Sequence record: PQ221054
Source: Escherichia phage Rao1
Reading direction: 5' to 3' (one strand)
Length of the DNA stretch: 44,051 nucleotides
Notes under the pieces: generated by a model
Seen by the model: only the letters and a program-made list of their open reading frames with translations
Told to the model about the DNA's origin: nothing
The model's database searches: none
Part shown: positions 1-462 of the stretch, piece after piece
How positions within the stretch are numbered: the stretch's first letter is position 1
Layout of the letters: each line of letters begins with the position of its first letter
Made by a program: the position numbers and the translations under genes

Positions 1-142
1 GTGGACTACCATACAAGTTGATTTTTATTCTGGCCGAGCCATTTTGCCGCATACACGTAACCGGCGTAGCGCGATGTAAGCCAACCACTATCGTTACGCG
101 AGTTACGCGAAGCTACGCCTAGACTTACACTATAAGTACTTA

Positions 143-233
143 ATATATATATATATCTTCTTTCTATTATTATTATTATTATTATTATTATTGTATGTAA
201 GTCATGTAACTGGTGCTCTTCTGATATATATAT
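143..233. repeat. Simple-sequence block: (AT)7 at 143-156, (ATT/TAT)9 at 165-192, (AT)5 at 224-233
   Basis: Read directly from the sequence; lies in a non-coding AT-rich region. Confidence 0.9.
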
Positions 234-462
234 GTTTTTTCCTATCAGAGTACATATCTGCAATTTTATGGAAGAAATAGCCAGTATTGGGCAACCCCAC
301 CCAATTTATGCGTTACAGGCGTTACCACAAACTACATTTAGCTATAGCTTGGCTAGGATGCCATTTCGCGTAACCACACCTAAAAGTTACCAAAAATTAC
401 ACTTGATTACGTGTGTAAGTCGATATATGATGGATTCAACCTAAACGAGAGGAGTGATAAAC

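Follow-up and report, generated by a model that had tools for sequence, protein, structure and literature searches.

The genome of Escherichia phage Rao1 (sequence record PQ221054; the window, that is the whole stretch of DNA that was analysed, is 44,051 nucleotides long) opens with some 450 nucleotides of AT-rich DNA, which a sequence-only reading had described as a gene-free stretch holding simple-sequence repeats, an excess of the pentamers GTAAC and GTTAC (together GTWAC) and a diverged duplicate near 27.1 kb. This raises the question of what the stretch does and why the genome holds it in two copies. A replication origin, a packaging or recognition site and an early promoter hub had been put forward as candidate roles. 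Of the three the anatomy fits the origin best, on account of the repeat arrays, the least stable core, the motif that both copies share in each lineage and an MCM-like helicase. The segments ~52-215 (extending to ~420) and 27120-27290 (to ~27520) are therefore read here, with a confidence that comes near to an even chance without reaching it, as putative paired paralogous replication origins of the type that joins iterons to a DNA-unwinding element.

The window is the complete genome of a T1-like coliphage (Drexlerviridae, Braunvirinae), T1 itself being one of the seven classic T phages, and its first 3 kb are 99.6-99.8% identical to phages TR2, TR3 and CY1. The end of the window joins its start, as in TR3 the last window bases continue directly into the first ones, and the 1-450 stretch is therefore the right part of a larger intergenic region. 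The two regions that concern us are:

43840-44051 plus 1-462: region A, a divergent intergenic region of 674 bp, with copy A in its right part
26969-27579: region B, a second divergent intergenic region, which houses the 27.1-kb copy (copy B)

Relatives for comparison were taken from a phage collection; a pattern scan of viral contigs gave seven loci, mostly copies of GenBank phages. The locus labels L013, L014, L016 and L017 stand for 12397V, Sf12, TLS and SU57.

The microsatellites were located as (AT)7 at 143-156, (TAT/ATT)9 at 165-192 and (AT)5 at 224-233. Eight GTWAC pentamers were found in 1-450, at 57, 93, 102, 206, 312, 321, 370 and 386; seven of them lie exactly where they had been placed before and the position formerly given as 369 should read 370. 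Base composition would lead one to expect 0.95 of them in 450 bp, and the remainder of the genome 1.02 (P(>=8) = 1.2e-5); the density thus exceeds the genome background (115 sites, 2.6 per kb), as had been claimed. The stretch 1-450 and the locus at 27.1 kb, with nine GTWAC in 27105-27579, are the two densest windows of the genome. The excess also appeared in an unbiased test, in which all 5-, 6- and 7-mers were compared between the two modules and the rest of the genome: after the k-mers of the AT repeats, GTAAC/GTTAC was the top 5-mer (17 observed, 2.0 expected, p = 7.5e-11), and ATATAT and TATATA are almost confined within the genome to the two modules. The repeat unit is a heptamer with a TTAC core, approximately [GC]TTAC[GA][CT]. 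The two modules together hold 16 of these heptamers, where 1.2 would be expected; this motif was defined post hoc.

Local alignment of 1-450 with the 27.1-kb locus gave a score of 152, to be compared with a mean of 34 +/- 5 and a maximum of 60 for dinucleotide shuffles and with at most 36 elsewhere in the genome. The two are thus diverged duplicates, beyond what low complexity would give. The strings that had been named were all recovered (CACGTAACC at 54 and 27124, TCATGTAACT at 202 and 27275, CGTTACGCG at 92), and the duplication proved longer than the 27115-27300 noted at first, ~52-456 being colinear with 27121-27520.

The description of the stretch as gene-free also holds. The open reading frames (ORFs) 6-263 (minus strand) and 232-444 (plus), as well as 27144-27425 (plus) and 27358-27579 in region B, are broken or absent in relatives. 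A coding role was rejected because these ORFs are unconserved and their poly-Tyr/Asn stretches are artefacts of the repeats; they are probably spurious gene calls. In some relatives ORFs that run through the microsatellites are annotated as hypothetical, namely in TR3 (6-263) and in the Ec3a_41 region of EC3a. For annotators this would explain the spurious hypothetical-protein calls in regions A and B.

Copy A is built of arrays of TTAC-core sites on both sides of an AT-rich core:

55-81, minus strand: left outer array, three TTAC-core sites (ACGTAAC 55-61, GCGTAGC 64-70, ATGTAAG 74-80) at a spacing of 9-10 bp
93-130, plus strand: left inner array, GTTACGC at 93 and 102, CTACGCC at 113 and CTTACAC at 124, spaced by 9, 11 and 11 bp
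122-129: left arm of an inverted repeat, GACTTACA
130-195: AT core of 66 bp, 89% A+T, with (AT)7 at 143-156, CTTCTTTC and (TAT)9 at 165-191; candidate DNA-unwinding element
195-210, minus strand: right array, two sites (ATGTAAG 195-201, ATGTAAC 204-210)
196-203: right arm of the inverted repeat, TGTAAGTC, inside the right array
224-233: second, smaller AT patch, (AT)5 followed by a T-tract
309-420: second half of module A; sites with a TTAC core at 312, 321, 368 (minus), 386, 396, 406 and 413 (minus)
332-374: conserved block of 43 bp, CTACATTTAGCTATAGCTTGGCTAGGATGCCATTTCGCGTAAC, paralogous to 27401-27443

In the left outer array TACACGTAAC is unchanged in five of the six region-A homologs and in all B homologs, and the left inner array, which includes a tandem of two GTTACGCGA, is nearly invariant in relatives. 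The arms of the inverted repeat are 100% complementary and lie 66 nt apart, enclosing the AT core. BEK2 and AugustePiccard retain this inverted repeat, TH21 a form of it with 7 bp, and the length of the core is conserved in relatives. The second half of the module is missing from region A of 12397V and SU57 and is therefore separable from the core.

Copy B repeats this plan:

27120-27210: left arrays, with the outer sites GTTACAC 27120 (plus), ACGTAAC 27125 (minus) and ATGTAAC 27134 (minus)
27183, 27194 and 27204, plus strand: inner sites of the left arrays, GTTACGC, TTTACGC and GTTACAT, at a spacing of 11 and 10 bp
27202-27210 and 27277-27285: inverted repeat, TAGTTACAT and ATGTAACTA, 9 nt, 100% complementary, 66 nt apart
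27211-27276: core of 66 bp, 85% A+T, with (TTA)5 at 27242-27256
27401-27542, plus strand: second half, the conserved block 27401-27443 followed by the rightward promoter P_R(B)

The left arrays of copy B are almost invariant across 10 phages of several genera. The enclosed length of 66 bp is identical in copies A and B though arms and interior differ, and it is also found in seven of the 10 B homologs; in Sf12 the arms of copy B are lengthened to 13 bp with a compensatory change. To the right of the core, copy A has two sites on the minus strand, one of them GTAAG, and copy B has one clear and one degenerate site. An exact match to the IHF consensus, TATCAACCTTTTA, was seen at 27226-27238 in the core of copy B. 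It is unchanged in nine of the 10 B homologs and diverged in Sf12, and the same match occurs in region A of 12397V and SU57. The consensus is found four times genome-wide, against 3.2 by chance, and not in copy A.

The cores stand out by their physical properties. Calculated from nearest-neighbour energies for duplex windows of 60 bp, the core of copy A has the lowest stability in the genome (-53.2 kcal/mol) and that of copy B the second lowest (-56.1), the third being at -65.5 and the genome mean at -80.6 +/- 4.7 kcal/mol. The same two sites head the ranking in BEK2, T1, Sf12, 12397V, TH21 and TLS (seven genomes in all), even where they are unalignable. Single-strand folding of the cores gave no significant structure (z +0.5 to +0.8; +0.6 for the core of copy A), and for the left arrays (z -2.1 in copy A, -0.55 in copy B) none that is common to both. 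An Rfam scan of the whole window matched only the tRNA gene at 3118-3190, which separates the early genes from the terminase genes and is tRNA-Arg in the annotation of TR3, and matched nothing in regions A and B. A cruciform, a hairpin or an RNA element was dropped as a candidate, there being no significant fold in both copies and no Rfam match there.

Compared with TH21 and Sf12, the 170-bp cores fall in the 97.5-100th percentile of genome-wide identity. On this comparison of sequences the cores appear to be under purifying selection. That also concerns the repeats, for which the earlier wording had implied hypervariability. Comparison of copy number did not support it, since the tract lengths are constant between isolates and genera: they are identical in TR2, TR3, CY1 and AugustePiccard and the same, with substitutions, in BEK2, TH21 and Sf12. 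Five phages agree in the length of the (TAT)n tract, T-to-A substitutions being the sole difference, and (TTA)5 of copy B is unchanged in eight of 10 phages. A hypermutable contingency microsatellite was rejected on the conserved tract lengths; judged by their alignment, the repeat tracts behave as a spacer of constrained length and not as hypermutable repeats.

The architecture is the same in phages whose repeats have another sequence. In T1 the repeats of copy B read GTTACA and those of copy A ATTACGCC/CGATTA/GATTAAC; in TLS both copies carry GAACA/GTTCAC, and GTWAC is not enriched. Within T1, TLS and 12397V copies A and B are significantly alignable. The A-B scores within a genome (152, 123 and 147) equal or exceed those of positional orthologs of different subfamilies (39-127), and the two copies therefore evolve in concert. 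Since a lineage has its motif in common between both copies, this points to a sequence-specific binder that is encoded by the phage, rather than to a host factor or RNA polymerase. In the Veterinaerplatzvirus-like phages 12397V (15900-16560) and SU57 (1-200) the core of region A is closer to the copy B core of Rao1 than to that of copy A. Together with the missing second half of their module A, this suggests that sequence was exchanged between the two copies. The two ends of the Sf12 record (1-366 and 47090-47640) both hold the equivalent of window ~120-366, with an overlap of ~250 bp from the (AT)n tract, which may have arisen in assembly or be a genuine terminal repeat.

Two distant phages, L019 and L020, were found via their helicase (36-39% identity), and both have the same layout in a divergent region that heads a replication operon. 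In L019 (9276-9751) five AAAGGG are followed by an AT core, the least stable site of the locus, and by four CCCTT in the opposite orientation. In L020 (9203-9759) ten CTTACA/TGTAAG (0.31 expected) surround (AAC)12.

As a reader of the sites two phage genes come into view:

40851-42434, minus strand: DUF3987 protein, by fold comparison an MCM-like, superfamily 6 (SF6) AAA+ helicase with a C-terminal winged helix
1089-1466, plus strand: free winged-helix paralog in the rightward operon of region A; PHROG 7327

A phmmer search of the helicase against the PDB gave no match and fold comparison alone was informative. DUF3987 has been placed among the SF6 replicative helicases, with a winged helix-turn-helix at its C terminus (PMC4889955), and helicase activity was demonstrated for one DUF3987 member (PMC11724360). 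The paralog is 59% identical to residues 448-526 of the helicase (E = 2e-29). The putative recognition region of the winged helix is near-identical in Sf12, which has the same motif, and different in TLS and T1; this correspondence between recognition region and motif is suggestive only. From the predicted fold and from analogy it may be proposed that the DUF3987 helicase is both the binder of the TTAC sites and a self-loading initiator, and that the paralog is a regulator, a competitor or a dominant-negative form at the same sites.

For the identity of the binder, the melting, the loading of the helicase and any function in replication we infer the following. A phage-encoded protein, most likely the C-terminal winged helix of the DUF3987 helicase, would bind the TTAC-core repeats, which follow one another at about one helical turn, flank the 66-bp core (85-89% A+T) left and right and point toward it. 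Binding at the two flanks would melt the core, the least stable and structure-free DNA of the genome, after which two helicase rings would load and a separate Zn-ribbon primase would start synthesis. As sites overlap the rightward promoters, the binder would also autoregulate these, and the free winged-helix paralog may modulate the occupancy of the sites. The pac cut at 1-50, together with an array of ATTGCA repeats, would form a separate packaging element that adjoins copy A.

The following features concern packaging:

1-50: pac cleavage zone, the left genome end, placed via relatives; copy B is without this segment
43931-44023: ATTGCA/TGCAAT array, in region A only, immediately left of the pac cut
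3515-4039: terminase small subunit (TerS), P22 gp3-like

In TR1 the pac site was placed by PhageTerm at TR1 position 3,615 (PMC10450929), which corresponds to window position 1 (window 2-188 being TR1 3614-3420), and the Rao1 record was thus probably opened at the packaging end and not arbitrarily. The end of the SU57 record maps to window 27/28 (match over window 3-27); it was chosen from a step in read depth, and PhageTerm is reported to have given several possible ends (PMC7718038). The records of EC3a and ZL19 start at window 45 and 48. Taken together, these positions place the pac cut at approximately 1-50, with the ATTGCA array on its left and the first TTAC site on its right. The array holds nine TTGCA/TGCAA against 0.33 expected (p = 1e-10), is conserved in relatives and absent from region B, and is a candidate for the recognition site of TerS or for an operator. 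Because copy B is without the array and without the 1-50 segment, and no genome end has been reported at copy B, pac is regarded as a separate, neighbouring element. The proposal of a packaging site can be retained, therefore, for the far left margin (1-50) only and not for the part that is common to the 27.1-kb locus.

A wider version of the origin reading would join these elements: two origins that evolve in concert are read by the winged helix of the helicase, with the free paralog as a governor of origin or promoter, and one of them is coupled to pac, in the T1 family and in the wider group of DUF3987 phages. This version is doubtful. If it were true, the initiation of replication and the start of packaging would be under one control region at the genome end.

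The third role that had been proposed, that of an early promoter hub, holds in part for the region as a whole, with promoters at 403-431 (plus) and 43895-43867 (minus), and not for the repeats and the AT core. The promoters and genes that border the modules are:

403-431, plus strand: P_R(A), sigma-70-type TTGATT-17-TATGAT, 30 nt upstream of the ATG at 463
27514-27542, plus strand: P_R(B), TGGACT-17-TATAGT
43895-43867, minus strand: leftward promoter of region A, ATGACA-17-CATAAT
43839 and 463: neighbours of region A, leftward genes ending at the former and a rightward gene starting at the latter
26297-26968, minus strand: Rha/anti-repressor-like gene, left neighbour of region B
right of region B, plus strand: operon for a 64-aa protein, a RecE-like exonuclease, an Erf-type recombinase and SSB
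43895-43911, minus strand: copy of a 21-nt repeat, ATAGCACTTTTTGCTAA, just upstream of the -35/-10 pair of the leftward promoter
27076-27092, minus strand: copy of the 21-nt repeat beside module B, on its left, directed at the leftward Rha-like gene

P_R(A) overlaps the TTAC sites 406 and 413, and its -35 is TTGACT in BEK2, AugustePiccard, TH21 and Sf12. P_R(B), with GTTAC sites in its spacer (27521) and at its -10 (27541), has TTGACT as -35 in L004 and TH21. These flanking sigma-70 promoters are conserved or nearer to consensus in relatives and all lie outside the cores. Within the cores no promoter-like match was found in the same register in copies A and B, and the promoter-like matches in the regions are not clearly above those of shuffles (4 vs 2.5 +/- 1.4; 7 vs 3.4 +/- 1.7). 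The window holds 17 copies of the 21-nt repeat, ATAGCACnnnTTGnTAA, where 1.6 would be expected, and most of them run in the direction of the genes beside them (e.g. at 1463, 13486, 28744, 32999, 35490 and 37830, and on the minus strand at 26284, 27076, 43085 and 43895). This repeat is the Drexlerviridae intergenic repeat aaATAGCACnnnTTGnTAAAA that was described for TLS, T1 and Rtp, its function being left open (PMC11447400); here one copy stands on the left of each module, pointing leftward. Further to the right a CAG/CAA trinucleotide repeat with a 21-nt tandem repeat at 29837-29900 was noticed in ORF 29508-29927, where it would encode a Gln-rich stretch; this ORF occupies the position of the SSB gene in relatives.

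What else could the duplicated module be? The main rival, unlikely but with a share of the probability that has to be reckoned with, takes the arrays as operators or enhancers for a phage transcription regulator that co-regulates both divergent control regions and leaves no role for an origin. The free winged-helix protein, a Cro/CI-like protein (32504-32986) or the Rha-like protein (26297-26968) would then, for example, shut off the replication and recombination operons early or activate them at a set time, and the AT core would serve as a flexible or looping spacer or as a sink for RNA polymerase. Both copies indeed lie in divergent promoter regions, and TTAC sites fall on the -35 and in the spacer of P_R(A) and, for P_R(B), in the spacer and on the -10, an overlap that fits a pure transcription regulator equally well and has to be counted against the origin. 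Many initiators autoregulate, however, so that it is compatible with an origin too. In L020 the sites overlap an excellent TTGACT-17-TATTAT promoter, and the single module of the distant phages heads a replication/recombination operon. Co-evolution of operator and repressor also predicts a lineage motif common to both copies, and the fixed spacer of 66 bp, about seven helical turns from centre to centre, would suit looping between half-sites. Both copies contain weak promoter-like matches on the minus strand, in which the right arm would supply the -35 and (AAT)n the -10, but promoter-like matches do not clearly exceed the shuffles and no core promoter has a register that is conserved between the copies. 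Moreover, most sites are 200-350 bp away from the conserved promoters, and a transcriptional role leaves unexplained why the spacer is the most meltable, unstructured DNA in every genome across subfamilies. A packaging function of the shared module itself, in which the TTAC arrays bind TerS as in the pac sites of P1 and SPP1 and copy B is a second or vestigial pac, is improbable. P1 pac has hexamer repeats on both sides of the cut and an IHF site, and here the pac cut at 1-50 is directly left of the first TTAC site; the records opened at pac (T1, TLS, SU57 and this phage) put the AT core 100-220 bp from the left end, the module of L019 adjoins terS, and the several ends given for SU57 by PhageTerm (PMC7718038) could be understood in this manner. 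Yet copy B is the better conserved of the two and no record or PhageTerm report places an end there, just as it has neither the ATTGCA array nor the 1-50 segment. A pac needs neither the least stable DNA nor inverted arrays around such DNA. Packaging of T1 is, in addition, classically described as starting from a single pac.

Slightly less credit still can be given to an origin primed by transcription in the style of T4 or T7, or to a recombination hotspot, with the repeats as accessories. RNA polymerase would act at the core via the TTACA arms and TATA/AATAAT, and an R-loop or open complex would prime replication or stimulate RecE/Erf recombination. T4 oriF and oriG and the primary origin of T7 do combine a promoter with an AT-rich unwinding element; the arms resemble a -35 (CTTACA/GTTACA) with TATATA/AATAAT 16-18 bp inward on both strands, and copy B directly precedes recE/erf/ssb. 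Nevertheless, the -10 candidates either have no T at the critical last position or stand in another register in each copy, and the many additional lineage-specific sites away from the core find no explanation. That the module is non-functional low-complexity DNA, duplicated by chance recombination, is very unlikely, close to negligible. AT microsatellites can arise by slippage, and there are signs of sequence exchange between the copies (region A of 12397V with its B-like core), but few stretches of DNA are as well conserved between genera as the cores, the tract lengths are fixed and the architecture persists with other motifs in T1, TLS, L019 and L020. The reading as paired origins has its own weak points besides the promoter overlap. 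Copy A adjoins the pac cut and the L019 module adjoins terS, by which recognition by TerS is possible; the core of copy B is more invariant, base by base, than meltability by itself would demand; and strict GTWAC gives a single site to the right of each core, the second being degenerate (GTAAG/GTATA). The link between the winged helix and the TTAC sites is drawn from fold and analogy only. GC skew tracks gene orientation and is uninformative on the location of an origin. DnaA boxes (TTATNCACA, one mismatch allowed) number 37 genome-wide against 51 expected, with none in module A and one in module B, and are therefore unenriched, which argues that this is not an origin of the host oriC type; no GATC is visible in either module. 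Finally, the origins of the Staphylococcus aureus pathogenicity islands (SaPIs), to which the modules are compared below, lie immediately downstream of the helicase gene, and neither copy does so here: copy A is 1.4 kb upstream of it, across five small ORFs, copy B is 13.6 kb away, and the modules of L019 and L020 are just upstream of the helicase gene, not downstream.

The literature yielded nothing usable on T1 transcription maps, origin mapping or Drexlerviridae transcriptomes, and the origin of the T1 family is treated there as unknown. The re-annotation of TLS in 2024 found no iterons (PMC11447400). The present analysis supplies two precise candidate sites throughout the family together with a candidate initiator and so makes the question directly testable, for which the lineages offer a natural set of specificity swaps (GTAAC, GAACA and AAAGGG). 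If paired origins are indeed what the modules are, they would be an example from a bacterial virus of duplicated origins evolving in concert. The Drexlerviridae are of relevance to phage therapy and to the contamination of fermentations.

With which known systems can such modules be compared? With iteron plasmids and the lambda ori they share initiator repeats at helical spacing, an adjacent AT-rich unwinding element and autoregulation of an initiator at its promoter. Those systems differ in having direct iterons of 17-22 bp on one side and in using DnaA and/or loading of the host DnaB. Herpes simplex virus has paralogous origins, oriS and oriL, that are situated between divergent genes and have inverted initiator sites around an (AT)n centre, and its oriL adjoins the gene for a single-strand-binding protein. 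The paralogy and the divergent setting are alike, and copy B lies beside recE/erf/ssb as oriL lies beside that gene; herpes simplex is, however, a eukaryotic virus whose UL9 is a superfamily 2 (SF2) helicase, and there is no sequence relationship, so that this is an analogy only. The satellite phage P4 offers a further analogy. Its ori and crr are two separated cis elements that have one short iteron, TGTTCACC, in common, to which the primase-helicase alpha binds via its C-terminal winged helix, and the modules resemble P4 in being two separated elements with the same short motif. On the other hand, P4 alpha is a superfamily 3 (SF3) helicase fused to a primase, and crr is a pair of 120-bp direct repeats, not a diverged full copy with an AT core of its own. 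The repeats cgTGAACAcgTGAACAgcgatgGAACA in region A of TLS (~400-450 of the record) contain TGTTCAC (the TLS motif being GTGAACA/TGTTCAC), which is seven of the eight bases of the P4 iteron TGTTCACC; this likeness may be a coincidence.

The closest correspondence in organization is with the SaPI origins. These have six to twelve iterons of 5-6 nt, an AT-rich centre and flanking iterons in opposite directions (PMC9371898, summarising Ubeda et al., 2007, 2012), and their Rep protein (SF3 or SF6) reads the iterons via a C-terminal winged helix and is thought to load itself as one hexamer per side (PMC9371898). The likeness extends to the size and number of the iterons (eight and nine GTWAC of 5-6 nt, within the SaPI range), to the central AT region, and to a helicase of SF6/SF3 type that has its winged helix at the C terminus, beside a separate primase. 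A layout of at least two opposed iterons per side is less clear: the left side has four plus-strand sites in copy A and three in copy B, the right side two minus-strand sites in copy A (one of them GTAAG) and one clear and one degenerate site in copy B, the inverted arms being perfect; the layout is clean in L019 (five versus four). Different from the SaPIs are the small number of strict sites to the right of each core, the two paralogous copies per genome, both between divergent promoters and one adjoining pac, and a core that consists of di- and trinucleotide repeats of fixed length, in a virulent coliphage and not a satellite. By analogy the modules would work like a SaPI-type origin, and they are not filed as a member of the SaPI-origin family. 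If this holds true, the self-loading mechanism that the staphylococcal islands have in their MCM-like initiator would also be found in a large family of virulent phages of enterobacteria.

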